A model generated the notes under the pieces. That model did no database searches. It saw nothing but the letters and a program-made list of their open reading frames with translations, and was not told the origin of the DNA. This document shows, one piece after another, positions 2,798 to 62,821 of a stretch of DNA of 64,000 bases. The position numbers were made by a program, and so were the translations under genes. The stretch's first letter is position 1. Each line of letters begins with the position of its first letter. The stretch comes from a virus, in IMG/VR virus record IMGVR_UViG_3300042691_050947; one strand, written 5' to 3'.

Positions 2798-3291
2798 ATC
2801 CTTTTAAGTATTAAGCACTTATTAGTATCAAAGCTTGGTATGTATCGATATGTTGTGATTTTATCTCCACTACCTTTAACTCCTTTTACTGAGCCAATTA
2901 TTTTAGTTTCATCAACTACTTTTTTCATCTCAATTTCAACATTAATTTCTGTTGGTTGTAGTATCGGTTGAGTAAATTCCTCAAAAGTACCTTTATTGTA
3001 TACACAAAAATCCCAAAGATTTCCCATGTCTTCCAAAGTAAACACCTTGTCTTTATTCAACTCTATTGCTTTGTTGAATCCATTTTTCCAGATAGTTCTA
3101 AATCCATCAGGAATTGATTCTTCAGCCAACTTCTCAACATCTACAACTCCAAATATCTCATCACAGTTTTGTTTGGATAGTTTCATCTTATCTGTTACTT
3201 CTAACATAGATACATCAGTTGTTGCTATAACAAACCTTTTATCATTAATAAGCACATACTCATCATGATCTTTAATTAATTTTCCTTTCAT
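2794..3291 (-). CDS. Hypothetical protein
   Basis: 165-aa ORF with ATGA overlaps at both ends. Confidence 0.7.
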   Translation of the reverse strand: MKGKLIKDHDEYVLINDKRFVIATTDVSMLEVTDKMKLSKQNCDEIFGVVDVEKLAEESIPDGFRTIWKNGFNKAIELNKDKVFTLEDMGNLWDFCVYNKGTFEEFTQPILQPTEINVEIEMKKVVDETKIIGSVKGVKGSGDKITTYRYIPSFDTNKCLILKRI

Positions 3292-4226
3292 ATTTTTTCA
3301 AATTCAAATTTTAACTCTTCAGTAAAAAGACCGTCATTAGCAACATATCGAAGTAGAGCCAGGTCCTTTGCTTTTGCCTCTATCTCAACATCTACGTCAA
3401 ATCCATAATCTGGAATGGAGTCATATACATAATCCGCATGTGAACGATTGATTACTGATGCATCTTCGTACAGTGACTTTGAGCTAGAGAAGTGCTGAAG
3501 CGGTGTGATATCGCCCCAAGTAGAGGCAGCAAGTAGAGCTGCTTGCTCTGCTGAAATATCATTAGTACAAAACCTGTGATGGAAATGGTCAAACGTAATT
3601 GGACAGCCGACTACTTTGTAAACTCCATTAAAAAGATCGATCACTCCAAACTGGCTTGGTTTATCATCATTTTCCACGACCAGCCTGGCTTTGGTGGAGG
3701 GGGAGAGCCGCTTAAAGTTATCGCAAAAGCGCTCCATTGCGGAATGCTTATCGCCATAGGATCCACCTATGTGGATGTTGATGGGAAACTGGTGGCTTTT
3801 AGGAAGAAACATAAGATCCATGATTCGAGCATGCTGGTCTAGGTCGTATATCGTCTTGCTCACTACCTCGGGATTGGGGGAAGCAAGCACATCAAACTGA
3901 CCTGGATGAAATGAGATTCGTAAATCGTGTTGATGAACGTACTCACCGATCCTTTTCATGATAGAACAGAGCTCAATAAAATTGGGCAGGTCTTCAAAGG
4001 AGTACTCGCTCATCCAGGGAAAGATATCACTGGACATGCGATAGACTTGAATATCGTGTGCGACGTTCCACTCAAGGATCTTATAGAGGTCCTTTAAGTT
4101 TTGCTCGGCTAGATCGCCAGCCCTAGGCAGACCTTGCTCCAGCCAAGTCTTACGAATCATGCCACGATTAATGGTGATTCCCTGATCACGCAAGCTTAAA
4201 TTTATGCAACAATATCCTAATCTCAT
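3288..4226 (-). CDS. uvsE: UV damage endonuclease UvsE
   Basis: MRLGYCCIN, YRMSSDIFP, RISFHPGQF, NIHIGG, RLVVENDD, FDHFHH, SHADY and EIEAKAKDLA motifs. Confidence 0.95.
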   Translation of the reverse strand: MRLGYCCINLSLRDQGITINRGMIRKTWLEQGLPRAGDLAEQNLKDLYKILEWNVAHDIQVYRMSSDIFPWMSEYSFEDLPNFIELCSIMKRIGEYVHQHDLRISFHPGQFDVLASPNPEVVSKTIYDLDQHARIMDLMFLPKSHQFPINIHIGGSYGDKHSAMERFCDNFKRLSPSTKARLVVENDDKPSQFGVIDLFNGVYKVVGCPITFDHFHHRFCTNDISAEQAALLAASTWGDITPLQHFSSSKSLYEDASVINRSHADYVYDSIPDYGFDVDVEIEAKAKDLALLRYVANDGLFTEELKFEFEKI

Positions 4227-11747: not shown

Positions 11748-14700
11748 ATGGAAACAAAACATACGCTATCTGACGTTTTAAAAAGACTTGTTGTTGACAT
11801 CGACAACATGAATCAATTTTTATTCAGCTTACAAAATATTCTAGAGTCAAGCTCAGAGAACGTCACTGTTTCTCAAACAAAGGTTGATGGGACTTCAACT
11901 AATATCACTGTTCCTTCATTTGGATATCTAAAAGGTAAGATCGAAGACATCAACACAAAGTTTGATACCTTAATCTCAGCAAATAGCGATGTGATTGGAA
12001 TAAAGTCTTCTAGTGGAGACCTTAGGAAATTTGAATTAAAAAAGACCTCACAACTAGTAAAAGACTTGGAGGCCGTTCAAAACTCAACCTTTGCCGTTCC
12101 AAGTTCATTTAAAGTAAAAAATAACTGGTTTTTTGAATCATTCCTAAATCCTTTGCTCTATGTTAGCTTAGACGTATCTGCTATCTTAACTGATGATATT
12201 GATCAATTCGTAGTCAAAAGAATCATAGTAAATTCAGTTAATAACGATGATGTTGCAACATTCTTTGACGATAACTATAAAGGACAGAACGACCTTTCTT
12301 ATCCTAGCCTAGTTCAGGAGCTTAACGATAATGGTATTGACTTTTTTGAAGACGATAATATCGTTGATATGGAAGTATCAGTAAATAGATATCAGGGATC
12401 TTTTGATGTAGTTAAGATATTGGAGGAGACTGGAAATCAGACTCTAACAAGCGGAGCAACCGTTTCAACATTACGTCGTCGATATAAGTTAAGTACTCTA
12501 GTTTATACTGACATATTATCTGGAATACAAAATAGCAAATCTCTAGCTGAGGGTGACGTTTTACTAACTGCAAACGATACTGAATATCGAGTAATCTCAA
12601 TAAATTCTACGGATACTGAGGTCGTGCTCGAGAGAATATTTGGAAACGATCCTATTACAATAGGCGCAGATATTCTTAAGTTAAAGCCAGTTCCATACCG
12701 TCGACCTGAATTACAAGTAAATGTAGGTTTTAATGAAAGAGAAGTGATCTTTATTAAACCTGTAAGCAAGGCTAAAAACCTAACAATTAATGATTTTTCT
12801 AAAGGGCTTGCTCTATATACAAATGAGTTGACAATTCCTTTGCAAGACGAGTCCACTACGACCCTCGCCGATTACTATAACAACTTTGTATCTGATTTTG
12901 GACTGATTCTCTTGAATCTAGCAAAAGAAAAGACATTACCGTCGATCTTAGCTATAACGCCAGATGCGCCAGCCCTAGACGAGACCAGTTTTAAAGTATA
13001 TCAAATAGATCAGCATATCCAAGATGATAATAGCATAACTGAATTAAACAATAACGTAAAGGAAAAAGCCGCTCTTCAGCAAGAGGTTGAGGAACTTAAC
13101 AAGAAGATTGACTCGATTAAATCGAGCATCACAACTATTTCCAAGACACCAAAGGAGGCAAAACGTTTACAAAACAAGTTGACTGAATCTCTTACTGCTC
13201 GGAACGAAAAAACAGCCGCTCTTTCTTCTATTGTCACTAACATTACAACTCAACTCTCTACGACCCCACAATTTGTTACCAATAAAAAATATGAAGTTCG
13301 AGGATTTTGGCAAATACCTAATCCTAAATTAGATAAGTATGGAACTCAAAACGTAGTCCAGTTTAAATACCGTTATCGATACTTAAGTCTTACTGGAACT
13401 CAACCGAACGCTCAACAACAATCATTCGTTGATGTTGATGGAGCAACCAAGACGGCAACCTTTTCTCCATGGACTGAGGTGTTAACTAAACCTAGACAAA
13501 AGGTATTGGATGAGACTACTGGTCTTTATGTTTGGGCCGAAGAGACTCTTACTGATTCAGAAGTAGTAAACACAAATCAATTAAACATAGCGATTAGAAA
13601 AGGAGAATTAGTTGAGATTCAAGTAAAATCTCTCTCTGAAGCAGGCTGGCCAACGAATGCTGCTGAATCAGTATGGTCAAACGTAATTCAAGTAAAATTT
13701 CCAGACAATATTCAATCTCAAGAAGAGGGTGTAGTCATGTCTCAAAAAGCATTTACCGAAAAGGCTAGGCTTGATTTTGAAAACAGCCTAAACGCTAAGG
13801 GACTAGACAATCACCTAGCTAATCAGTTTACTTCAGGCGATAAGTTCTATGCTCACCTAGCAGAAGACATTTCTAGTGGGTTTTTTACAAATGAAGGAAA
13901 CGTCATTGACTTGTATCAAAAATTAAAAAATCTACAGTCTACTCTAGATGCAATCCAACAATCAATTAACCTTGATCGTGGAGTAATCAAAGTAAGTGTC
14001 ATCGACTCAGAAGGAAACTCATTAGACGTTGCAAACGGAGACACAATTCAACTTTTTGCTGGATATTATAAGGACCTAATTAAGGATACTACTGGAGGAA
14101 CTGTGATCTATAATGAAGGTGCAATAATCACCAAACAGTATGCTATCTCTATTCAAAATACGTCAGCTACAAATCTTGAACTAATTTCCCTATTATTTGG
14201 AGGAATAAATGAATTAGCTGAAGGGATAGATCCAGTAACAGGTATATCTGTTCCCACTGATCCGTTAGCATATCCTACTTCAGATTATCACGTAAACCGG
14301 AGATATGATATTGTTCCGATTGGTGTCAATTCAAATCCAGTTCCTCTAATTTCTAACTTTAAACAAAAAGCTAGTACACAATCGGCTCAAGTAAAGAGCC
14401 AATTTATTCACTCTAGAGTAAGAGAGTATGGATTGTCTGAAGAGATTTATTCTCCTAGCGTTCCTGCAACAACATACGCTGGAGCTACCTATTATACACA
14501 AGCATATGTCTATGATGGCAGAACAGTCGGCACTACACAGTATGTTCCAGCAAACTGGGGACACTACTTACCGTTCAATCCTCAGTTATTAATTCCTGGA
14601 ACAGCAACTGATTCTAGAATTTGGAATGGAACGACTAATGCATCGTCAATTGCAAATGGCTCTGGATACCTTACTGAATTCTGTATCAGTAAAGATCATC

Positions 14701-15374
14701 CGCATCTTACTACATTGGGTCCATCATTCAATTCAGTCTATTCAGTTACTACATTGGCTGAAGCATTTCGACCAGATTTTAATGCAGTTGCACCAATCAC
14801 AGCAGCAGACTTTCAAAAATACTTGCCGTTTGCTCATTCACTTCACTTTGAGACTTCTGTCTCAGAAGTAACTAATGCATATGGTATTGAATATTATAAG
14901 CAGGCAAGTCGAATCACTCCTTTGACTCCATCTAATAACACAACATCGGCTGGTAAGAATGATAGTCACTATCCAATTAAGTTAGGTTTTGTGAAAGATG
15001 ACGAATATCTAATAGGAAAATATACATGTGGTTCATACCTTTATCTATACCCTACTACATATGAATCAGTATCTGTCGAAGGAAACTTCCCAGCGCGATC
15101 AGTTAAACCTGTCACATTTGGTCCAGAGAATGCATTAAATATCCCAGTATTGTTTCAGTTCAGAGCATCTGATAGGTTGGGATATATTGGAGGATATCGA
15201 AGAACCGGAGACGCTTTAACTAATATAAAATATTCAAAGAAGCTAGGCATTGATATTATCTTAAAAGATGATGCACCTTTCTCGTTTGATTTACAAGTAA
15301 GCGCACAATATGCTAAAGAGACTACTCTAGATGCACCATTGGTTCAAAGTAAAGGAAAAGTTTCAAGTTTCTAA
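11748..15374 (+). CDS. Large putative baseplate/tail structural protein
   Basis: 1208 aa; central coiled coil followed by an FN3-like segment (VEIQVKSLSEAGWP...SVWS). Confidence 0.55.
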   Translation: METKHTLSDVLKRLVVDIDNMNQFLFSLQNILESSSENVTVSQTKVDGTSTNITVPSFGYLKGKIEDINTKFDTLISANSDVIGIKSSSGDLRKFELKKTSQLVKDLEAVQNSTFAVPSSFKVKNNWFFESFLNPLLYVSLDVSAILTDDIDQFVVKRIIVNSVNNDDVATFFDDNYKGQNDLSYPSLVQELNDNGIDFFEDDNIVDMEVSVNRYQGSFDVVKILEETGNQTLTSGATVSTLRRRYKLSTLVYTDILSGIQNSKSLAEGDVLLTANDTEYRVISINSTDTEVVLERIFGNDPITIGADILKLKPVPYRRPELQVNVGFNEREVIFIKPVSKAKNLTINDFSKGLALYTNELTIPLQDESTTTLADYYNNFVSDFGLILLNLAKEKTLPSILAITPDAPALDETSFKVYQIDQHIQDDNSITELNNNVKEKAALQQEVEELNKKIDSIKSSITTISKTPKEAKRLQNKLTESLTARNEKTAALSSIVTNITTQLSTTPQFVTNKKYEVRGFWQIPNPKLDKYGTQNVVQFKYRYRYLSLTGTQPNAQQQSFVDVDGATKTATFSPWTEVLTKPRQKVLDETTGLYVWAEETLTDSEVVNTNQLNIAIRKGELVEIQVKSLSEAGWPTNAAESVWSNVIQVKFPDNIQSQEEGVVMSQKAFTEKARLDFENSLNAKGLDNHLANQFTSGDKFYAHLAEDISSGFFTNEGNVIDLYQKLKNLQSTLDAIQQSINLDRGVIKVSVIDSEGNSLDVANGDTIQLFAGYYKDLIKDTTGGTVIYNEGAIITKQYAISIQNTSATNLELISLLFGGINELAEGIDPVTGISVPTDPLAYPTSDYHVNRRYDIVPIGVNSNPVPLISNFKQKASTQSAQVKSQFIHSRVREYGLSEEIYSPSVPATTYAGATYYTQAYVYDGRTVGTTQYVPANWGHYLPFNPQLLIPGTATDSRIWNGTTNASSIANGSGYLTEFCISKDHPHLTTLGPSFNSVYSVTTLAEAFRPDFNAVAPITAADFQKYLPFAHSLHFETSVSEVTNAYGIEYYKQASRITPLTPSNNTTSAGKNDSHYPIKLGFVKDDEYLIGKYTCGSYLYLYPTTYESVSVEGNFPARSVKPVTFGPENALNIPVLFQFRASDRLGYIGGYRRTGDALTNIKYSKKLGIDIILKDDAPFSFDLQVSAQYAKETTLDAPLVQSKGKVSSF

Positions 15375-30303: not shown

Positions 30304-31194
30304 ATGGCAAAAAAGCAAGCAAACAAATTCTCCATTTTTCATATTGAAGGTGGACTAGGAAAGCATATCGCAGCAACAGCCGTTGCTAAGTGTATTAAAA
30401 ATAATCACCCAGATCGTGAATTAATCGTAGTTTGTGCGTATCCGGAAATATTTTTAAATTTACCTGCAATCGATCGAGTATATAGAATAGGGTCGACTCC
30501 ATATTTCTATAAGGATTTTATCGAGGGAAAGGACAGCTTAATCTTTAGACACGAACCCTATTTCACAAGTGAGCACATCCATAAGGAATTACCTCTTATT
30601 GAAAACTGGTGCAAGCTCTATAATCTTGAATTTTCAGGAGAATATCCAGAATTAATATTTAATGTTAGACAAAAACAGTATGGTTTTAAAAAATGGAATC
30701 GTGAAAGACCAATTGCCGTGATTCAAACGAACGGGGGTCCGCTAAATGACCAGCCATACCTCTATTCATGGACTAGGGACATTCCAAACACGACCGCAAA
30801 TGAATTGGTCGCACACCTAAATCAATCATATCATGTCATTCAAATATGTAGGTCCAGCGAACAGTCTATCCCAGGAGCAGAGGCTATCTTTGAACCGATG
30901 TCAAACATGGAACTATTGTCCCTTCTGCTTTTTTCACAAAAGAGAGTCTTAATAGATTCAAGCATTCAGCATGCGGCAGCAGCACTAGACCTAAGATCAA
31001 CTGTCCTATGGATCGGCACCTCCCCTAAAGTATTTGGATACAGCATTCATGAAAACATCATTGCTAATCTTCCGACTGAAGTCAAGCTTCCAGACAGCTA
31101 CCTATTTGACTATAATTTTCATGGAGCAAATCATGAGTGTCCGTTATTAGATCTAAATATCTTTGATACTGATGAAATTTTAAATTCTCTATAA
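30304..31194 (+). CDS. GT-B glycosyltransferase, GT9 (heptosyltransferase)-like
   Basis: EGGLGKHIAA...YPEIF at the N terminus and IDSSIQHAAAAL...VLW...P..FG at the C terminus. Confidence 0.75.
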   Translation: MAKKQANKFSIFHIEGGLGKHIAATAVAKCIKNNHPDRELIVVCAYPEIFLNLPAIDRVYRIGSTPYFYKDFIEGKDSLIFRHEPYFTSEHIHKELPLIENWCKLYNLEFSGEYPELIFNVRQKQYGFKKWNRERPIAVIQTNGGPLNDQPYLYSWTRDIPNTTANELVAHLNQSYHVIQICRSSEQSIPGAEAIFEPMSNMELLSLLLFSQKRVLIDSSIQHAAAALDLRSTVLWIGTSPKVFGYSIHENIIANLPTEVKLPDSYLFDYNFHGANHECPLLDLNIFDTDEILNSL

Positions 31195-31829
31195 TGGATT
31201 TTACGCATCGTCACCTTAGCATTAACGAATACTTTGATCGGATATTTTATTTGAATCTAGATAAGGACACTAAGCGTAATGACAGTATCCTTAGTCAGTT
31301 TAAAGAAATGGGCATCACAAACTTTGAAAGAGTTGCAGGAAGTGAGGTGGAGGATCTTCCAATGAGAACTAAATATAGAAATTTCATAAAAGATGACTTA
31401 AAATATATTAAGGGTCAACTTGGATGTAGAGAGGCTCACCTATCAGCTATTAGATTAGCTAAGATTCGAGGATATGACCGAATCTTAATATTGGAGGACG
31501 ACGTCACATTTCTAGAAGATCCGTCCGCTCTACTTAATGCCAACCAATGGTTACATAACGATTGGGACATGCTCTATTTTGGTGGATTAGTCGAACCTTT
31601 CTTTAGAAACCAAATAGTTTGTGCCCATGCATATGGAGTAAGCTCAAACCTATTTGATGATATTCTACAGATGGGACCGGCTTCTGGAATGGAAATCGAT
31701 AACTTTTACGCTAAGGTAATTCAGCACATGAGTTATAACCATAATCAGAGCGGTAAGTATAGAATCCGAGTCATCCAACCGTTTAATAGAATAGTGCAGA
31801 ATAAAAATTACGAATCCAACATAGTATGA
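31194..31829 (+). CDS. GT25-like glycosyltransferase
   Basis: YLNLD...R, GCREAH, ILILEDD, WDMLYFG, AHAY and EID motifs. Confidence 0.8.
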   Translation: MDFTHRHLSINEYFDRIFYLNLDKDTKRNDSILSQFKEMGITNFERVAGSEVEDLPMRTKYRNFIKDDLKYIKGQLGCREAHLSAIRLAKIRGYDRILILEDDVTFLEDPSALLNANQWLHNDWDMLYFGGLVEPFFRNQIVCAHAYGVSSNLFDDILQMGPASGMEIDNFYAKVIQHMSYNHNQSGKYRIRVIQPFNRIVQNKNYESNIV

Positions 31830-32641
31830 AAAAGATATTTTTTCAATCATCCCTACCCAGAGCAGGTTCAACCTTGTTACAGAATATCATAGGCCAGAAT
31901 CCAGACTTCTATGTGACTCCTACTTCAGGCGTCCTAGAATTAGTGTATGCTGCCAGAAACAATTACACTAATTCTCCAGAGTTTAAAGCACAGGACTCAT
32001 CCCTGATGCGATCTGGCTTTACTCAGTTCTGTCACGATGGAGTCATAGGATTTTTTAACGGCATTACGAATAAGCCGTACGTCTTGGATAAGAGTCGAGG
32101 TTGGGGAGTACATTATGGATTTCTAAGTTCCTTCTATCCTGAACCCAAAATTATCTGCATGGTCAGGGATCTTAGGGGTATTTTTGCTTCGATGGAGAAA
32201 AACTTTCGTAAGAATCAACACATGGATTCAGGTATCGTTAACCACTCAAACATGACCGGTACGACTACTGAAAAAAGAATCGATATCTGGGCAGGAGGTC
32301 AGCCCGTTGGGCTCGCACTAGAAAGGTTGCAGCAAGTTTTTAAAGAAGGAATAAATGAAAAAATTCTATTTATTAAGTATGAGGATCTAGCAAAAGACCC
32401 GGTACCGGAAATGAAGAAGATATATGAATACTTGGGCATACCTTACTTTAATCATGATTTTAACAATATTGAACAGATCACGCAAGAGGACGATACAGTA
32501 TATGGAATTTATGGAGATCATCAGATTCGTAAAAAACTTGAACCTTTAAAGTCAGACTATAAAGAAGTATTAGGTCAGAGCGCATGCAATTGGATCAAAG
32601 CCAATTATAAGTGGTTCTATGATGAGTTTAAATATTATTAA
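31826..32641 (+). CDS. PAPS-dependent sulfotransferase
   Basis: 5'-PSB loop SLPRAGSTLL, 3'-PB motif RDLRGIFAS, KYEDL..DP. Confidence 0.85.
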   Translation: MKKIFFQSSLPRAGSTLLQNIIGQNPDFYVTPTSGVLELVYAARNNYTNSPEFKAQDSSLMRSGFTQFCHDGVIGFFNGITNKPYVLDKSRGWGVHYGFLSSFYPEPKIICMVRDLRGIFASMEKNFRKNQHMDSGIVNHSNMTGTTTEKRIDIWAGGQPVGLALERLQQVFKEGINEKILFIKYEDLAKDPVPEMKKIYEYLGIPYFNHDFNNIEQITQEDDTVYGIYGDHQIRKKLEPLKSDYKEVLGQSACNWIKANYKWFYDEFKYY

Positions 32642-53333: not shown

Positions 53334-55628
53334 ATGAAAGGCTTCGTAGACAAAATATTAACTGAACTTAAGACTAATACTACTCTTAAATCAGAACCAC
53401 TAGTAAAACTTTTAACTGAATCGATTGATAAATCGATATCGTTGGGTGAACCTACAAGTTCAATCTATACAAATTTAAAGAGCGGTTTGACTGCCATAAA
53501 CAAGAACATAAAAAATTCAAAAATAACTTCAATCTTAGAGCAGTTTAAAAAGATCGAGATCACTCCCGAATCTCAAACACTTAAGATTGCAAAAAAGGCA
53601 AATCTTTCTCAAAGGTTAAACTTGATAAAAGAATCAAAATTTGGATCTAGCCCAATGATTAAGACTCAAGTTGAACTTTTTGAGTCTTATCTGAATAACG
53701 GCACTCCTGATTTTGCTCTATGCGAGAATTTTATCTCGTTTTTCTCAAATCATAAGTACGATTCAGTCATTAACGCTCAAGTAGAAAAGGTTAAAGCCTA
53801 TATCAATGAAAATCGTTCAGAAATATTATTCTTAAACGCTATCTATTCTATGGATAACATGAATAACCAGCAATATGCTAGCGTTAGTGCAGATCTTAAA
53901 AACATGTTGATTGGAGAATCATATACTTCTGATATCTTAAAATTAAAATATGGCACGACTGTTCCTGTAATTAATCAGCTTGTAAATGAGTTAAGAATAG
54001 TCGAGTCTCAAACTGCAGGTTATTTTACTTTAGGAGAAGGTAACTCATTCACACAAGTAACTAACCTGATCACTCCTGCGACTAAAGCTAAGGACGGAAT
54101 GATTCTTTATATGGATAACCGATTTATTTCAATCCGTGAATCCAGAGGATTAACTGGAAAAGAAACTAAAGTATACATTGATGGAAAATTCAAGATTGCC
54201 GAAGTTGATCCAAACTACGTAAAGGAAAAATTTCCAAGATTCTATAAAGTCTCTGAAGCATTTGCTACCCTAGGTTTTTCTAAGAACATTGATGGAACTA
54301 GCATAGATTCATCAGCAATCCGAAACTTTAACATTAGTTTCAAGACAAACGAAGAAAAAGAATTAGATCTTTATCTAAATGAGTCTAAGGTTTCTAACTT
54401 AGATGATATTAACTTAATGGAGGCTCTTTCTTTAGAAAGCAATGAAGTTAAAAGTAGAGTAATTTCTCTATTTGAAAATTCAAGCAATCTTTTTAATTTC
54501 GATTTTATTAAAGAATTAACGAATGATCGTACTTTAAGTGAGGCATTTGTTCTTAAATTAAACAATGAATTCTATATCTGTGAAAAATTAAATTCAGCTG
54601 AAAGAGAATGGAAAAAAGTAGACGAATACGAAATGTATGAGTTTTGCATGAACAAGTTCAACTATGACATTAGCCCTATCTTTAAGAGCAAAATCGATGA
54701 AAAAATAGATACTTACCAAAAGATCGAAAAGCGAAAGAATGCAATTTCAGTAGACATTAGCAAACTTGAAGAAACGATGGAAAAACTTCAAAAAGCTATT
54801 TCTAATCCTGATCTAGACTCAGACGCAGTTAAAAAACTTAGTGGAATCAGAGAATCTATCGAGGCATCCATTAACTCTCTTAAAAATGATTATGTCGGAC
54901 TAGACTTATTTAAAAAGGACATTAACTCAGTTTATGGAAATGGACGACGCTCTCAATTAAATGAGAATACTCCAGGTCAGATGGCAGCACTAGCTCTTAA
55001 AAAAGCAAAGGGTGCTATCGTTGATATGAGAAAACATCAAGAAGAGTTAAATCAACTTGTAGCACAAACAAATTCATTGGTGAGTCCAATAGTTGGTAAA
55101 ACTATTCAGCGATCAGGAGATGTCGGTCCTGCTGAAATAACTGAAGCTTATATGGAAAGCAGCAATGATGGCAAGGGAAGCCTATCGCTCAAGCTTGAAA
55201 CTACAGGCGGAATTTTTAATATCTATGTAGTATCTCATCTTACTGATCCAATGAATCAAAACTCATTGACTACTAAGATTACTGGATTTGCCCCAGATCC
55301 AGAAAACATTCAAGAAGGTCAGTTGATGGATAATAGTGCGGGTGCAGTATACAGCATATTAAAAATGAATTTTACTAGCATCACTAGCATGCAAGAAAAC
55401 ATGGCAACTGTAAATACAATAACTAATTGCTTGCAAAAAGTAATCGATACGTATAACTCAGAAGGAATCGCAACCTCTTTAGCAGGAGAAGTCAATCGAG
55501 ACTTGACGGCTAGCGCTCAAGCGGCTCCTACTTTAAAACCTAAGGATGTTGCTCAAATTCCTCTACCTGGTGCCAGCTCATCTAACACTGCTTCTAATGC
55601 AACACCACCTACTCTCGCAAGCAAATAA
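53334..55628 (+). CDS. Putative prohead core/scaffold-type protein with many (I/L)-x-E sites
   Basis: Helical 764 aa with LTES, IKES, INEN, IGES, IVES, IRES (x2), LNES and LNEN; ATAAATA at 53305. Confidence 0.5.
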   Translation: MKGFVDKILTELKTNTTLKSEPLVKLLTESIDKSISLGEPTSSIYTNLKSGLTAINKNIKNSKITSILEQFKKIEITPESQTLKIAKKANLSQRLNLIKESKFGSSPMIKTQVELFESYLNNGTPDFALCENFISFFSNHKYDSVINAQVEKVKAYINENRSEILFLNAIYSMDNMNNQQYASVSADLKNMLIGESYTSDILKLKYGTTVPVINQLVNELRIVESQTAGYFTLGEGNSFTQVTNLITPATKAKDGMILYMDNRFISIRESRGLTGKETKVYIDGKFKIAEVDPNYVKEKFPRFYKVSEAFATLGFSKNIDGTSIDSSAIRNFNISFKTNEEKELDLYLNESKVSNLDDINLMEALSLESNEVKSRVISLFENSSNLFNFDFIKELTNDRTLSEAFVLKLNNEFYICEKLNSAEREWKKVDEYEMYEFCMNKFNYDISPIFKSKIDEKIDTYQKIEKRKNAISVDISKLEETMEKLQKAISNPDLDSDAVKKLSGIRESIEASINSLKNDYVGLDLFKKDINSVYGNGRRSQLNENTPGQMAALALKKAKGAIVDMRKHQEELNQLVAQTNSLVSPIVGKTIQRSGDVGPAEITEAYMESSNDGKGSLSLKLETTGGIFNIYVVSHLTDPMNQNSLTTKITGFAPDPENIQEGQLMDNSAGAVYSILKMNFTSITSMQENMATVNTITNCLQKVIDTYNSEGIATSLAGEVNRDLTASAQAAPTLKPKDVAQIPLPGASSSNTASNATPPTLASK

Positions 55629-55634
55629 TATAAA

Positions 55635-55898
55635 TTGAGGAACATATTATCATATCAGGAATATCTAAGCGACTCTCTAAAAGAGTCGCTTGATCCTTAT
55701 GTCGAATCCAAGTTAAAATTTAAGATTGGAGATCTTGTTCAAGTAAAGGACCGACTGGGTAAAATAACCGCATTTAATGGAAAAGAATATCTAGTCTTTC
55801 TTAATAATAAAAACGAGAGGGTTCCAGAATCACAGATCGAACGGGTTACTCCAGGTAAAAAGAAGAAAAAAGTAAATAAAAATAAAAAGAGCTCATAA
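55635..55898 (+). CDS. Small SH3/KOW-like basic protein with ILSYQEY tag
   Basis: TTG start; FKIGDLVQV motif; Lys-rich tail. Confidence 0.6.
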   Translation: MRNILSYQEYLSDSLKESLDPYVESKLKFKIGDLVQVKDRLGKITAFNGKEYLVFLNNKNERVPESQIERVTPGKKKKKVNKNKKSS

Positions 55899-55912
55899 AA
55901 ATGAGCTCTTTT
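55885..55912 (+). terminator. Intrinsic terminator
   Basis: 12-bp perfect stem AAAAGAGCTCAT-AAAA-ATGAGCTCTTTT followed by GTTTT. Confidence 0.85.
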
Positions 55913-55963: not shown

Positions 55964-56239
55964 ATGCAAAATTCTATCAAAATTGGCCCTATCCAAAAGG
56001 GCAGACCTACCCCACAAAGACATTCCCTAATTAAGGAAAGATTGACTAAAATGAAAGTAGGAAACTTTTTTGAAATCTCCGGATTTTCTCAAAAGTCTGA
56101 GATACTTAACATACGTGCATCAATTGGATATTTCTCCAAAAAGGAAAACGTTAAGGTCTCTACATCAGTAAAAAATGGAGTTCTTCGAGTGGAAAAAATC
56201 AAGTCTATCAAAACTAAGGAAGTATCTAAAGTAAAATAA
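55964..56239 (+). CDS. Small basic protein, possibly DNA-binding
   Basis: 91 aa, Lys-rich, KMKVGNFF motif. Confidence 0.6.
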   Translation: MQNSIKIGPIQKGRPTPQRHSLIKERLTKMKVGNFFEISGFSQKSEILNIRASIGYFSKKENVKVSTSVKNGVLRVEKIKSIKTKEVSKVK

Positions 56240-56258
56240 ACAATATAAAATTTTTTAA

Positions 56259-57059
56259 ATGGATACTCGTATAGATTTTAACACTGCCAAAAAGTTTGAT
56301 CAGCTTGAATTGATCGATTGGAAAACCAAGTACGGAGACTTTCAATTCTACATCCGTAAGGGATTAAATGAGATCAAGTACAATGTCGGTACCAACGTTT
56401 CAAAAAGTCCAAAAAGCGGAGAATACATTAAACCTCTAACATCAGCGGCATACGGTCCAGAAATGGACATCAATGCTGTTTTTAATCAAGAAGATACGTG
56501 GTTAGATATCGGAGGTCACATTGGTCTTTTTGCGATCAGAATGGCTAGACAGTTTCCAAAAATAAAAGAAGTAATTTCTTATGAAGCTTTGCCTCATAAT
56601 GCTTCTTTTGCACTAGAAAACATCAAGATAAATGGAGTCGAGTCTGAATGTAAAGTAGTACAGAAAGCAATTGTTCCAGGAATAGAAGAAAAAATAGAAT
56701 TTTTTATTTCAAATGATTCTGGTAAACACTCGATTCTTCCTATTCGAGGCAGAGAGGTCCTAACTGTTCCTGCGATAAATATCAATGATGCGATTGCCAA
56801 TCATGGAGCAACCGCCATTAAAATGGACGTTGAGGGAGCAGAATATGAGCTAATCAAATCAGTCACAGACTGGTCAAATGTCAGGATAGCAATAATTGAG
56901 TATCACTTTATGTACAAATTATTAAAATCAAATCGAGTTGAAAAATTTCAAGAAATAATATCTATTCTTGAAAATAATTTTGATGTTGTTCGTAAGATCG
57001 ATGCTGTAGAGTACGGAAAAAACTTTATTACGCATATCGTCGCTATCAAGAATAACTAA
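56259..57059 (+). CDS. FkbM-family SAM-dependent methyltransferase
   Basis: WLDIGGHIGLF, SYEA and IKMDVEGAEY...IIEYH motifs. Confidence 0.9.
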   Translation: MDTRIDFNTAKKFDQLELIDWKTKYGDFQFYIRKGLNEIKYNVGTNVSKSPKSGEYIKPLTSAAYGPEMDINAVFNQEDTWLDIGGHIGLFAIRMARQFPKIKEVISYEALPHNASFALENIKINGVESECKVVQKAIVPGIEEKIEFFISNDSGKHSILPIRGREVLTVPAININDAIANHGATAIKMDVEGAEYELIKSVTDWSNVRIAIIEYHFMYKLLKSNRVEKFQEIISILENNFDVVRKIDAVEYGKNFITHIVAIKNN

Positions 57060-57076
57060 CATATTGTTTGATGATA

Positions 57077-57102
57077 AAAAAGAGCGCGAGCGCGCTCTTT
57101 TT
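57077..57102 (+). terminator. Intrinsic terminator (bidirectional-looking)
   Basis: AAAAAGAGCGC-GAGC-GCGCTCTTTTT perfect stem. Confidence 0.85.
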
Positions 57103-57120
57103 AAGTTAAAGATTAAAATC

Positions 57121-57384
57121 ATGAAAAAACTACTTTTACTTTTATTTTTAAATGCTTCCTTAAGCTATTCACAAACGGACTTTGTGAATAATCAGATAGT
57201 TGTTTCAAACCTCTCGATGGACACCGTCTATATTTTAGATGATGAAATGGGAAGAATGATTTACTCAACGTGGGAGTATAACCCATATCACAATGGAAAA
57301 AAGGTCGCTATATTCTTAGTTAAGGACCTGGCTCCATATCGAGAAATGTACGAGAGACTAGCTAATATTCGGAGAAAAAACTAA
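57121..57384 (+). CDS. Small secreted protein
   Basis: Start moved to ATG 57121; MKKLLLLLFLNASLSYS-Q is a Bacteroidota-style signal peptide with +1 Gln. Confidence 0.65.
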   Translation: MKKLLLLLFLNASLSYSQTDFVNNQIVVSNLSMDTVYILDDEMGRMIYSTWEYNPYHNGKKVAIFLVKDLAPYREMYERLANIRRKN

Positions 57385-57391
57385 CCTTTAC

Positions 57392-57817
57392 GTGGTTAAA
57401 GTAAAGAGCCCATACCTACTTCTTCAGGAAATCTACCACGATGATCCTTGGAAATCACTAATCTGTTGCATAATGCTTAACTGCACATCTAGAAAACAAG
57501 TAGATTTAGTGAGAGATGCATTCTTTAAAAAATATCAAAGTCCTGAAGTTGCAATGCAGTCGAACCCGACTGAAATGGCAGAATTGATCTCAATATTGGG
57601 TTTTAAAAATCGTCGTACTAATACAATACAACGATTCTCGAATGACTGGCTGTCTCTAAGTTGGTCTGAACCTAAAGAACTATATGGAATTGGAAAGTAT
57701 GCTCAAGATTCATGGGATATCTTTTATAAGGGTGATCTCTCAATTGAACCGAAGGATGGAGTATTGGGAAAATACTTAGCCTGGGCAAGAACTCAGCCTG
57801 AAAACCCAGTAAAATAA
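57392..57817 (+). CDS. MBD4-like HhH-GPD DNA glycosylase
   Basis: LLQE..HDDPWK..ICCIMLNCTS, HhH PKELYGIGKYAQDS..IF and catalytic-position Asp in PKDGVLGKY closely parallel the MBD4 catalytic domain. Confidence 0.85.
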   Translation: MVKVKSPYLLLQEIYHDDPWKSLICCIMLNCTSRKQVDLVRDAFFKKYQSPEVAMQSNPTEMAELISILGFKNRRTNTIQRFSNDWLSLSWSEPKELYGIGKYAQDSWDIFYKGDLSIEPKDGVLGKYLAWARTQPENPVK

Positions 57818-57820
57818 GAC

Positions 57821-58903
57821 ATGAAGAAAAGTTTATATGCATATTTTGGTCTTCTTGACCTACACGACATCGATTCTCCAGGACATTCACTATATCAGAT
57901 CGGATTAGTCGATTCTTTACGAGAATCATTTGAGGAAGAAAAATTCGATTTTTATTCTTACTATCCAGAAGAAGTAATTAAATCTGCAAGTCTTCAAAGT
58001 TTTCCAGAAACTCCATTGGGTAGATTGTTTCATGAATATCGAACAAGACTATTTGATCAGCCCATTCATGACATAGATGAATTAATACAATTAATTTCAC
58101 AACGTGTGTATTCTAAATTATATCTAAAGGCAAGATTTAGAAACCTTTCGACTCTTTCTAAAAAATGGAAAGATGCTAGAGACTTTGATAAGATCGTTGA
58201 ATGTGCAATCGACGCAGGCTACACAAAGGAAGAAATAATCATATTAGACACTGATCTTTCTCTTTCAGATAAGTTCGTCGAACAGACTAAAGATTTTGTG
58301 ACCATCTTGATTCCATCAATCGACTTTCCAGGAATATCAAACATGTTCTTAGTAGACTGTGTGAATCTAAATTTAGCTCAATCAAAAAAAGGAATAACTA
58401 GCGTGTTCTATGGAAACATCGACACCTCTAAATATAAAAGCGGCAACTCAAAAAGTGAGATCTTGCCCGATGTTCTTGCATGGATAAGTCGAAATCACTG
58501 GTCAAAGGATGAAGATTTTTACCTAATCTGTAAAAAGAATGATTTCGATTCTCTTTCAAATAAGCTGTCGTCCACCTATCACATTGATAGAAAAGATAGG
58601 GTTAAGATCTGGGAAATTCTCGAGTCTTCTAGGGTCATGGTAAATATCACTAAAGAAAAATATAACGATCGAAAGTTTATACCTGCTAGAATATATGAGG
58701 CTATGATTTTCGGCATGATTCCAATTTCATATAAGTTTGATTTCTTGTGCTCAGCCTTTTCTTTTGATAATCTTGAGGATCTTTTTGAAATTTATGCATA
58801 TCTTGGTGAGTGTGATCATGCTGGATTAGAACAAGCATACAAGCATTTCATAAATAGCTATATTGACCATTTAAAATTAAATTCTACTACGTATTCTAGG
58901 TAA
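57821..58903 (+). CDS. GT-B glycosyltransferase resembling T4 DNA beta-glucosyltransferase
   Basis: SVFYGN and KYNDRKFIPARIYEAM...YKFD parallel T4 BGT DVIYGG and KNYNDNFITLRVWETM...EEFD (recalled). Confidence 0.6.
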   Translation: MKKSLYAYFGLLDLHDIDSPGHSLYQIGLVDSLRESFEEEKFDFYSYYPEEVIKSASLQSFPETPLGRLFHEYRTRLFDQPIHDIDELIQLISQRVYSKLYLKARFRNLSTLSKKWKDARDFDKIVECAIDAGYTKEEIIILDTDLSLSDKFVEQTKDFVTILIPSIDFPGISNMFLVDCVNLNLAQSKKGITSVFYGNIDTSKYKSGNSKSEILPDVLAWISRNHWSKDEDFYLICKKNDFDSLSNKLSSTYHIDRKDRVKIWEILESSRVMVNITKEKYNDRKFIPARIYEAMIFGMIPISYKFDFLCSAFSFDNLEDLFEIYAYLGECDHAGLEQAYKHFINSYIDHLKLNSTTYSR

Positions 58904-60967: not shown

Positions 60968-62821
60968 ATGTCTTACTTATCCCTAAATGAAAACCAGATC
61001 CAGCAAATCGATGCTTTAAACTCTATACTTGCTCAAGCTGAACCTACGCTTTCCAAGATGCTCACCTTTGAGTCTCTAGTAAATGAAGCTCACGTATTAA
61101 ATGTGCTTGAATCAAGCATCCCAGAAAGTCTACGATTTGACCTTCACCTTGACATGATCCTAAAGATCGGAAAATCAACAGTTTCTGACTATTATACAGC
61201 AATGCCTTCGGGTCACAATTACATTTTAGAAGCAGCTAGAAAGGTATTTCCAAACTCTCCGATGATCACAGAATCGATCGAGACCTTTCGAGCATACTTA
61301 ATATCTATGATTAATGAAGACGCTTTTGCTTTAAGTCAGCCTCTACCCGATATGGCAGGAAGCTTTGATAAGGCGGTAGCCGGTGGAGAATTGGAAGCAC
61401 GGACAGGTGATAGCAAATGGGGAATTCTTAAAAAGTTGTGGAATGCTATAACTGAAGGCGGATCCACGATCGGTATTATTCATTTTATTATCGATATAAT
61501 CGGAGTTTTTGGAGACTTCATTGTCCCTGGAGTTGGAGTTGTTGCAGACATCATTAATGCTATTATCTATGCGATTCGGGGAGAATGGATCCTGTGCGCG
61601 ATAAACGTGATTGCAGCTATATTTGTTGGATTTGGAGACACTCTAAAACTATTGAAAGGATCGGCAAAGGGTGCGCAAAAGTTACTTTCAAAACTCATGG
61701 GAAAAGAAGGAGCTAAGGAGGGAGCTGAGATGATAGCAAAAATGTCTGCCAAGGAATCCGGAGGAGTGATCAAGCTTCTTACTACAATCTTTGGAAATAT
61801 CGGCGGAGCACTAGGAAAAGCAACTTCTTTATTTGGAACCTTCGTTTCGGCTATGGGTAAAGTAACGAGTTGGGTTCCTGGATTAGGAAAGTTATTGACT
61901 CCGATTTATGAAGGACTCGGTAGAGCGCTTACAAAATTTGGAGATGGCATGTCCCTAGCGAGCGCTAATCTTAAATTAGCAACGACTGGTGCTAAAAAAT
62001 CTGCAGCAATGACAATTGATGCTGCTGTAAAATCGGGAGGAGATTTTATATTTGATGGACCATGGGTAAGAGTGATGAGTAAAGAAGGCAAAGAAATAGG
62101 AAAATATCCAGTAAAACAATTAGATGCTCTTACATCAAAGCAGCTTCTTGAAGTAACATCTAAAAAGGCAGGATCTGGTGCAAATATCCTCTATAAAAAT
62201 GCGGATGACATCCCGAAAGTAGAAAAGGTACTGAAGGATCCAAAGATTCAAGATGGATTTAGAAAAAGAGCTTATGCATTTTTTGAAAGCACTCCAAAAC
62301 TAAAGGGAATGGCTAGAATGTTACCTTCATTAAAATATTTTATAGGAAAACAGATCTATAAAATTATATTTGGTACTAACTTTGTAGACGGCGCTCAAAA
62401 TAGATGGGATAAACGTGAGGTTGAGGGTCATGGAAATGGAGCATTAAATGATTGGATATCCGATAGAATTGCTAAGGAAAAAGCAGAATCCGGTGCTGTG
62501 TATATTCCTGCATTAATGCTAGATTCACAAGATCAAGAGGTAGTTGATCGAATAACTAAGTATCAAAATAAGTTTGCAAAGGATCTCAATCAGCCTTCTA
62601 TCATGCATGTTGTAACTAATAAATATGATAAGGAGTCGGCTCCTCCAGATGTTCGAAAATTCTTTGATGAAGTGGAACGAGGCAATGTTAAGCGAGGCGG
62701 ATCTCGAGATAGAGTTGATCACTCTAGCGCAGATCGTCTTTCTAACCAATATGGAAAAATCGGTGAAAGTAAATCGCCTAAGATCATAAGAAACATATCT
62801 AATTTTTCAGATTTTAAATGA
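60968..62821 (+). CDS. Probable head-internal/ejected protein with a membrane-inserting (pre-toxin TG-like) region
   Basis: IHFIIDIIGVFGD...GVVADIINAIIYAIRGEW hydrophobic hairpin; Gly/Ala-rich amphipathic helices; TFESLVNE, MITES and MINE sites. Confidence 0.55.
   Translation: MSYLSLNENQIQQIDALNSILAQAEPTLSKMLTFESLVNEAHVLNVLESSIPESLRFDLHLDMILKIGKSTVSDYYTAMPSGHNYILEAARKVFPNSPMITESIETFRAYLISMINEDAFALSQPLPDMAGSFDKAVAGGELEARTGDSKWGILKKLWNAITEGGSTIGIIHFIIDIIGVFGDFIVPGVGVVADIINAIIYAIRGEWILCAINVIAAIFVGFGDTLKLLKGSAKGAQKLLSKLMGKEGAKEGAEMIAKMSAKESGGVIKLLTTIFGNIGGALGKATSLFGTFVSAMGKVTSWVPGLGKLLTPIYEGLGRALTKFGDGMSLASANLKLATTGAKKSAAMTIDAAVKSGGDFIFDGPWVRVMSKEGKEIGKYPVKQLDALTSKQLLEVTSKKAGSGANILYKNADDIPKVEKVLKDPKIQDGFRKRAYAFFESTPKLKGMARMLPSLKYFIGKQIYKIIFGTNFVDGAQNRWDKREVEGHGNGALNDWISDRIAKEKAESGAVYIPALMLDSQDQEVVDRITKYQNKFAKDLNQPSIMHVVTNKYDKESAPPDVRKFFDEVERGNVKRGGSRDRVDHSSADRLSNQYGKIGESKSPKIIRNISNFSDFK

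Follow-up and report, generated by a model that had tools for sequence, protein, structure and literature searches.

A conserved glycosyltransferase-FkbM cassette of uncultured T4-like phages as a candidate system for DNA hypermodification

The question raised by IMG/VR virus record IMGVR_UViG_3300042691_050947 is whether a short block of its genes serves to modify the DNA of the phage itself. The 64,000 nucleotides analysed here (referred to as the window) come from a large uncultured T4-like phage of the myovirus type, encoding baseplate wedge, tail-fibre, and neck proteins, and the block (positions 55964-58903) contains the genes for a methyltransferase of the FkbM family, a DNA glycosylase similar to MBD4, and a glycosyltransferase of 360 amino acids (referred to as GT360). 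Phages classically protect their DNA from restriction and CRISPR by sugar modification of 5-hydroxymethylcytosine (hmC), and enzymes of this type are used in the mapping of hmC. In a first-pass annotation, these genes were proposed to form a module for DNA hypermodification and repair, with a motif of T4 beta-glucosyltransferase (BGT) as one of its grounds. Our analysis puts at about even the chance that the block is a DNA-modification cassette, in which GT360 glycosylates the hmC-containing DNA of the phage and FkbM tailors the product; this DNA reading appears to be partly supported, by gene context rather than by the BGT motif. No match to the block was obtained in DNA and protein searches against 50,697 cultured-phage records.

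Relatives of GT360 were found at 80 IMG/VR loci (36-88% identity; not dereplicated), and gene neighbourhoods were counted at the 74 loci with at least 1.5 kb of upstream sequence. FkbM was located just 5' of GT360 in 70 of these and an MBD4-like gene between the two positions in 43, with both present in 41 and neither in 2. The recurring unit (~75 related loci) consisted of p91, which is kept directly 5' of FkbM in the closer relatives (35-67% identity), FkbM, an optional MBD4-like gene, and GT360, and was usually found immediately 5' of the gene p617. Even relatives with 85-88% identity in GT360 differed in the presence of the MBD4-like gene, and across the clade FkbM was more conserved than GT360 (45-92% vs 36-88% identity). 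GT360 is the constant element of this unit, accompanied almost always by FkbM and optionally by the glycosylase.

In the window, a terminator and a small open reading frame (ORF) with a signal peptide stand between FkbM and the other two genes, and the first-pass annotation entered this as a caveat to a single module. A tblastn search found no counterpart of this ORF at any of the 80 related loci. In the relatives, the gene after FkbM directly abuts it or overlaps with it, and the MBD4-like gene overlaps or is located a few nucleotides from FkbM and GT360 at the 41 loci with both. Since the separating insertion is unique to the window and FkbM abuts the next gene in the relatives, the caveat is resolved in favour of one module; the terminator and the signal-peptide ORF are a lineage-specific insertion (moron), which splits the operon and is probably not part of the module. 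The extension of this ORF to an upstream TTG contains the terminator, and the signal peptide begins at the ATG.

Evidence for the role of the cassette came from the slot that it occupies. In 20 sister loci with the gene order p684-p764-...-BGT homologue-p617-p285, neither GT360 nor an MBD4-like gene was present. These loci were gathered via p764 and then via the BGT-like protein, and gave 15 distinct rows in a tree. Their BGT homologue scored 36.6 bits against PF09198 (cut-off of 27) and matched PDB 1bgt with E=4.4e-14. GT360 and the BGT homologue were mutually exclusive, no locus having both, and each was typically located directly 5' of p617, with gaps of 37-476 and 70-540 nucleotides. In the p684 tree (a quick IQ-TREE search with a midpoint root), GT360 cassettes fell to either side of the deepest split (support of 100), and the 15 distinct BGT-bearing phages formed one clade (91) as the sister of the GT360 subgroup containing the window (92). 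The replacement between GT360 and BGT is a clean in-place exchange and represents one evolutionary event.

FkbM was also found beside BGT homologues. In the sister L156, the BGT homologue is preceded at 8 nucleotides by an FkbM gene (PF05050, E=2.4e-8), and in an unrelated lineage (L189, L190, L191, and L218), the BGT homologue is followed after 29 nucleotides by FkbM (PF05050, E=5.8e-15; TIGR01444, 68 bits) and then by a gene similar to the 5-hydroxymethyldeoxyuridine (5-hmdU) DNA kinase (PF18723, E=3.5e-12). In 18 more distant loci, the BGT homologue adjoins a hydroxymethylase homologue, as in T4. The best support for FkbM in a DNA pathway is its association with DNA-type glycosyltransferases of two unrelated families; no paper linking FkbM, hydroxymethylcytosine, and phage was found in the library searched.

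The unrelated lineage deserves a separate description. At L189:5248-11686 (IMGVR_UViG_3300047392_000199; also in L190, L191, and L218), a compact cluster around the BGT homologue and FkbM encodes a protein with a myo-inositol-1-phosphate synthase domain, the 5-hmdU DNA-kinase-like protein, a protein with a cREC_REC domain, and a dUTPase_2-like protein. Judging from these genes, the cluster could be a separate undescribed pathway of DNA hypermodification, possibly with an inositol-derived or methylated adduct.

Genes for a hydroxymethylase, TET/JBP, or DNA methylase, which the first-pass annotation named as partners to look for, were not found within the window; a hydroxymethylase-like gene was present in its relatives. 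Four large relatives carried the cassette together with a divergent homologue of thymidylate synthase on the same contig: G002 (207 kb), G003 (253 kb, 94% complete), G004 (271 kb, terminal repeats, 100% complete), and L395/G007, a 254-kb contig binned in a Bacteroidetes metagenome-assembled genome. The best solved relatives of this homologue were the CMP hydroxymethylase MilA (9e-18) and T4 gp42 (1e-13), followed by thymidylate synthases at 1.5e-10 and weaker. Equivalents of Glu60, Cys148, and the cytosine-specifying Asp179 of T4 were invariant, the scores were far under all of the thymidylate-synthase equivalog cut-offs, and the gene adjoined a dCMP-deaminase-like gene. A homologue of gp56-type dCTPase (~1e-21) was found in all three genomes tested (G002, G003, and G004). 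The hydroxymethylase-like and gp56-type genes in these relatives point to a clade that very probably makes hmC DNA and, less probably, DNA containing 5-methylcytosine (5mC). Homologues of BGT and of T4 alpha-glucosyltransferase (AGT) were absent from G002, G003, and G004; searches of these three genomes with T4 gp1 dNMP kinase and T4 AGT as queries came back empty, a null result that carries no weight. The same three genomes also had a canonical thymidylate synthase, which was itself unusual: it occupies an open frame of 380-450 amino acids (L085/L086 = G004:229880-231025; L082, L083, and L084), and in G004 the Pfam model was matched in three separate pieces, suggesting insertions or a fusion.

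GT360 had nothing usable by sequence or profile in Pfam, PHROGs, NCBIfam, or PDB (E<=10 for PDB). The family is narrow, its 55 representatives in 1.84 billion proteins being without a name, and is almost wholly phage-borne: a scan of 185,579 species genomes gave a single match, on the phage-like 254-kb contig L395/G007, where it was flanked by p684, p764, and FkbM. An AlphaFold model built from an alignment of 41 sequences (pLDDT of 93.7 and pTM of 0.92) had the GT-B fold with two Rossmann domains. In the same 41 sequences, invariant residues were found in both halves: His22, Lys103, Arg105, Asn108, Asp118, Asp143, and Asp145 in the N-terminal half, and Gly198, Asn199, Lys211, Arg257, Lys278, Arg290, and Glu293 in the C-terminal half. 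On the strength of the model, GT360 is predicted to work like a GT-B nucleotide-sugar transferase of an unclassified family.

The motif of T4 BGT quoted in the first-pass annotation was accurate: residues 252-283 of T4 BGT (..KNYNDNFITLRVWETM..) were aligned by hhalign with residues 272-304 of GT360. As evidence of a BGT, the match fails because it is not above chance (E=0.21, probability of 0.3%), and T4 AGT gave the stronger score at this donor-binding element of the GT-B fold (E=0.011). The donor-site helix of T4 BGT with Arg269 and Glu272 (FITLRVWETM) was aligned with FIPARIYEAM of GT360, in which Arg290 and Glu293 correspond to the invariant residues; this Arg/Glu element is common to GT-B enzymes, and AGT was also aligned there. 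In the region of the catalytic Asp100 of BGT, which follows strand beta-4 of the N-domain, GT360 has LKARFRNLS (residues 100-110) after the corresponding strand, with no Asp, and the invariant His22, Asp118, Asp143, and Asp145 are candidate alternatives. The E-x7-E motif of GT4 enzymes was not present in GT360: its second Glu corresponds to Glu293 and its first to Lys285. Ten of the 41 family members weakly matched PF13524 (best E=0.0015) and one PF00534 (E=0.025), and the protein of the window matched neither; PF13524 also labels 22% of one cluster of true BGTs. Atlas feature neighbours of GT360 included PF09198 clusters at 0.95. The candidate identity of GT360 as a remote BGT homologue was dropped, hhalign giving E=0.0023 at best.

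In a Foldseek comparison, the GT360 model matched T4 BGT with E=2e-6, and T4 BGT gave the best TM-score. Experimentally verified phage DNA glycosyltransferases with the GT-B fold match T4 BGT only at Foldseek E values of 1e-5 to 1e-7 (10.1101/2023.12.21.572611). Since the value for GT360 lies in this range, its fold is compatible with a DNA glycosyltransferase. Whole-model fold searches did not separate BGT and AGT from GT4 enzymes, and the N-terminal (acceptor) domain folded alone gave only generic Rossmann-like matches. The description of ORF 57821 as "BGT-like", therefore, stands at the level of the fold and not as membership in the BGT family (GT63, PF09198).

The assignment of the methyltransferase was confirmed. 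FkbM matched PF05050 (E=1.5e-11; 45.2 bits vs a cut-off of 22.7), TIGR01444 (78.9 bits vs a cut-off of 37.7), and the methyltransferase family phrog_8156 (6.4e-15). The glycine-rich motif I for S-adenosylmethionine (SAM) of class-I enzymes, WLDIGGHIGLFAI, including LDIGGHIG, is present at residues 81-93 of the 266 amino acids, and this segment was aligned with the SAM-binding segment of the O-methyltransferase 3tfw. Characterised enzymes of the FkbM family typically O-methylate sugars, natural products, and polyketide hydroxyls.

The first-pass identification of the glycosylase as MBD4-like was also correct: phmmer against the MBD4 glycosylase domains in PDB gave E=1e-25, with residues 5-132 of the query aligned to 8-136 of the 4ew4 chain. 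The score with the Pfam helix-hairpin-helix (HhH)-GPD model was 23.5 bits, below the cut-off of 26.2. The protein consists of the glycosylase domain only, without the N-terminal methyl-CpG-binding domain of full-length MBD4. The context of the catalytic Asp in the HhH element (GIGKY..DS) is kept, LYGIGKYAQDS being aligned with LHGIGKYGNDS, and the catalytic Asp106 was retained in nine of ten aligned relatives. The DNA-intercalating Arg in the LNRTSG loop of MBD4 is absent from the protein of the window (LNCTSR); this Arg-finger position is Cys in nine of the ten relatives and Arg only in L051, and Arg34, three residues on, is invariant. The tenth relative with respect to the catalytic residue, located within a cassette (L032:5609-6007), has Ala in place of Asp (GEYAAAS) and may, by its sequence, be an inactive or DNA-binding-only variant.

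The substrates of MBD4, namely T, U, and 5-hydroxymethyluracil (5hmU) opposite G, are deamination products of C, 5mC, and hmC, and this range would suit a phage with modified cytosines. The claim that the glycosylase is dedicated to the module was not upheld. It is missing from 31 of the 74 cassette loci, and MBD4-like genes occur at no fewer than 486 viral loci; of 80 sampled loci, 59 are outside the cassette clade, and at these GT360, FkbM, BGT, and hydroxymethylase were all absent within a distance of 4 kb. In two lineages outside the cassette, the gene adjoins an Fpg/Nei glycosylase. Because it is patchy within the cassette and common in unrelated phages, the MBD4-like gene looks like a general mismatch-repair accessory and not like a dedicated or obligate partner of the cassette. 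The window also encodes the UV-damage endonuclease UvdE on the minus strand (3288-4226; PF03851, E=9e-56), and, as far as domain assignments go, the two enzymes together show a phage that carries its own putative DNA-repair toolkit.

From these observations, the following pathway may be drawn. Before replication, hydroxymethyl-dCTP would be made by the gp42-like dCMP hydroxymethylase and the gp56-like dCTPase, the genes for which were found in the relatives. After replication, GT360 would move a sugar from a nucleotide-sugar onto hmC in the phage DNA, with Gly198, Asn199, Lys211, Arg257, Lys278, Arg290, and Glu293 as the putative donor site; His22 and Asp118 might act together as the general base, a His-Asp arrangement shared with inverting GT-B enzymes. 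FkbM would then O-methylate a hydroxyl, the simplest candidate being one of the transferred sugar; the four of 74 cassettes that have no FkbM are consistent with such a tailoring step. The MBD4-like enzyme would remove U, T, or 5hmU opposite G after the deamination of (modified) cytosine, as an optional repair add-on that may be co-transcribed with the cassette and is not obligate. In its fullest form, in which the clade decorates hmC with an O-methylated sugar that is installed by the GT360 family and tailored by FkbM, and a glycosylase of the MBD4 type polices deamination, this proposal is tentative, and we consider it rather doubtful.

Several observations weigh against a DNA-modifying cassette, and some of them also favour a different product, in which GT360 and FkbM build or tailor a non-DNA glycan: either virion proteins (those of the capsid, the fibre, or the internal cargo) or a host envelope polymer would carry the methylated sugar, and the MBD4-like gene would be an unrelated repair gene inserted by chance between the two. 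The cassette is located among late-type genes preceded by a late-like motif, probably structural or cargo genes, and FkbM enzymes typically act on sugars or natural products. Other glycan genes are present: the tail/neck region of the window (31194-32641) has a GT25 glycosyltransferase (PF01755, E=7.3e-8; phrog_2835, "glucosyltransferase") together with its coupled sulfotransferase (PF13469, E=4.2e-21), and the complete relatives have GT2 genes and a protein of 980 amino acids with a GT1 domain. As whole proteins, TarM, BshA, PimA, and WaaG matched the GT360 fold as well as BGT did, and the MBD4-like gene is mobile and optional. The weak matches of ten family members to PF13524 point in the same direction, but this model also marks true BGTs, as noted above. 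Likewise, the GT360 family is acidic, with a median isoelectric point of 6.1 vs 9.05 for T4 BGT, but T4 AGT has a value of 6.11, and this property is not discriminating since the two T4 enzymes differ widely. A non-DNA glycan leaves unexplained why a genuine BGT homologue occupies the same slot 5' of p617 in strict mutual exclusion, and why FkbM is paired with BGT homologues beside a 5-hmdU DNA-kinase-like gene; furthermore, no envelope gene cluster of a cellular genome contained a member of the GT360 family, its single match among the 185,579 genomes being on the phage-like contig. We regard this explanation as possible, if on balance unlikely.

The remaining points against the DNA-modifying cassette concern homology, the substrate, and the slot. 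The GT360 family was aligned with a 22-member BGT alignment by hhalign at E=0.0023 and a probability of 12.7%, over 97 columns of the donor half only, and none of the 41 members matched PF09198 (E<=5). The window has no homologue of hydroxymethylase, dCTPase, BGT, AGT, or Dam; the cassette is far from the hydroxymethylase gene in the relatives (~100 kb in G004), and the enzyme that this gene encodes could instead be a dCMP methylase. The 20 BGT loci are not independent because the exchange was a single event, and the slot is plastic, with variable cargo such as a CUB protein of the type IX secretion system type in the window and SPFH and NfeD genes in L112. Both the DNA acceptor and the methylation of the sugar are steps that we infer. 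A variant of the proposal keeps GT360 as the enzyme that glycosylates hmC DNA and has FkbM act at a different hydroxyl or atom within the pathway; examples are a base, a nucleotide precursor, or the 5-hydroxymethyl group, which would yield methoxymethyl-cytosine wherever a site is unglycosylated. Such a role would fit the higher conservation of FkbM than of GT360, its pairing with two unrelated glycosyltransferase families, the weak class-I similarity of the FkbM of the window to TRM5/TYW2, and that of the L189 FkbM to TlyA-type 2'-O-methyltransferases; it appears improbable, given that characterised FkbM enzymes O-methylate sugars or polyketide hydroxyls, that the constant adjacency to a glycosyltransferase suggests sequential action on its product, and that the four cassettes without FkbM fit tailoring. 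Less probable again, and only a slight possibility in our view, is that the MBD4-like protein is a counter-defence or anti-host enzyme that excises bases from host or competitor DNA, or processes modified bases within the modification chemistry. The Cys in place of the arginine finger in most members suggests that substrate handling may differ, and recent literature reports glycosylases of the host that attack modified DNA of phages, but the catalytic Asp and the whole layout of the MBD4 domain are conserved (E=1e-25), the pairing with Fpg/Nei in other phages and the presence of UvdE in the window fit a repair toolkit, and its patchy presence among near-identical relatives argues against an essential step of the pathway.

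The other glycosyltransferases were considered separately. The proposal that the complete relatives have no glycosyltransferase besides GT360 was rejected when the GT2 and GT1-domain genes were found, and because of these genes and GT25, GT360 is not the sole candidate DNA glycosyltransferase. GT25 was kept in G002 (63% identity), with no match in the complete genome G004; with the sulfotransferase, it is, by its domain content, a predicted second and separate glycan system. The same slot in the BGT-bearing sister L112 also contains, at 12951-15127, genes for an SPFH/flotillin protein (PF01145, E=3e-29) and an NfeD-like protein, a membrane-scaffold combination that is unusual among phages.

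The layout of the slot is summarised in Table 1. The ORF coordinates in the first-pass annotation were correct, including the start of ORF 57821 at 3 nucleotides past the stop of the MBD4-like gene. From p764 to p617, the order on the plus strand is p87, a terminator, p91, FkbM, a second terminator, the signal-peptide ORF, the MBD4-like gene, GT360, and the CUB protein. Both of the terminators reported earlier are real: RNA folding of the first gave -17.1 kcal/mol with a z of -7.4, and none of 200 shuffles was equally good; the second had a z of -3.5. The p91 protein had no match in Pfam, PHROG, or NCBIfam.

Table 1. Features in and around the block, listed by position in the window
Feature	Position	Strand	Remarks
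p764	53334-55628		Conserved gene; left border of the slot
Terminator, bidirectional intrinsic, strong	55885-55912		12-bp stem and T-run; closes the p764/p87 unit and precedes the block
p91, 91 amino acids	55964-56239	+	First gene of the block; small basic protein, isoelectric point of 10.6
Degenerate late-like motif, AAATAAACAATATAA	56234-56248	+	2 mismatches; just 5' of FkbM
FkbM methyltransferase, 266 amino acids	56259-57059	+	SAM-dependent
Intrinsic terminator	~57077-57102	+	GC-rich hairpin and T-run just 3' of the FkbM stop; -15.8 kcal/mol, z -3.5
Small signal-peptide ORF (MKKLLLLLFLNASLSYSQ...)	57121-57384	+	Likely start ATG 57121; ORF listed from TTG 57064
MBD4-type HhH DNA glycosylase domain, 141 amino acids	57392-57817	+	Stand-alone
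GT360, GT-B fold glycosyltransferase, 360 amino acids	57821-58903	+	Constant element of the cassette
CUB-domain secreted protein, 661 amino acids	58957-60942	+	PF00431, E=1.8e-6; between GT360 and p617; only in some relatives
p617	60968-62821		Conserved gene; right border of the slot

The motif AAATAAATAATAAAA (up to 2 mismatches) was found in 16 copies between 20736 and 60956 of the window vs 2.6 expected, a six-fold enrichment, with most copies shortly 5' of structural genes, in many cases at a distance of 10-25 nucleotides. As a candidate late promoter, it differs from the canonical TATAAATA of T4, which was not enriched in the window (5 matches vs 9.4 expected). The block was previously described as lacking the late motif; this was true of the positions before 55964, 57121, 57392, and 57821, where no copy was found, and not of FkbM, which is preceded by the degenerate copy.

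If the full proposal is true, the glycan would be the first methylated one on DNA, FkbM would be the first enzyme of its family in a nucleic-acid pathway, GT360 would be a previously unrecognised family of DNA glycosyltransferases, and the modification operon would have recruited a eukaryote-type MBD4 glycosylase. A DNA glycosyltransferase family working with a methyltransferase would widen hypermodification chemistry to tailored (methylated) glycans, new enzymes for labelling modified bases would follow, and the evasion of host defences by abundant freshwater T4-like phages of Bacteroidota would be explained. The MBD4-type domain of 141 amino acids, common in phages, is relevant to where this glycosylase, familiar mainly from eukaryotes, came from, and it prompts the question of how deamination is dealt with in phages whose cytosines are modified.

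The glucosyl-hmC system of phage T4 comprises the gp42 dCMP hydroxymethylase, the gp56 dCTPase, and alpha- and beta-glucosyltransferases. GT360 differs from the T4 enzymes in that it is outside the detectable BGT and AGT families, does not adjoin the hydroxymethylase, and is coupled to FkbM and, in many loci, to a DNA glycosylase, enzymes that are not components of the system in T4. The phage glycosylase shares the full layout of the glycosylase domain and the GIGKY..DS context with mammalian MBD4 (PDB 4ew4, 1ngn, 4e9g, and others), but is a phage-encoded, optional, and mobile protein of 141 amino acids with no methyl-CpG-binding domain and, in most members, Cys at the Arg finger. FkbM of the window is similar to the FkbM O-methyltransferases (PF05050/TIGR01444), exceeding both curated cut-offs and having the SAM motif LDIGGHIG; we know of no FkbM enzyme in any DNA-modification pathway. 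The capsid glycans of mycobacteriophages and chloroviruses carry methylated sugars, and virion glycosylation systems resemble the cassette in having glycosyltransferase and methyltransferase genes among structural genes; they differ from it in that their operons are not known to include a DNA glycosylase, to exchange positions with a DNA glucosyltransferase, or to co-occur with a hydroxymethylase and dCTPase. DNA glycosyltransferases from metaviromes hypermodify hmC with diverse glycans and are often associated with thymidylate-synthase homologues (10.1101/2023.12.21.572611); FkbM, O-methyl sugars, and glycosylases are not mentioned in that preprint. Like these enzymes, GT360 is a phage GT-B protein with a distant match to the fold of T4 BGT (E=2e-6).

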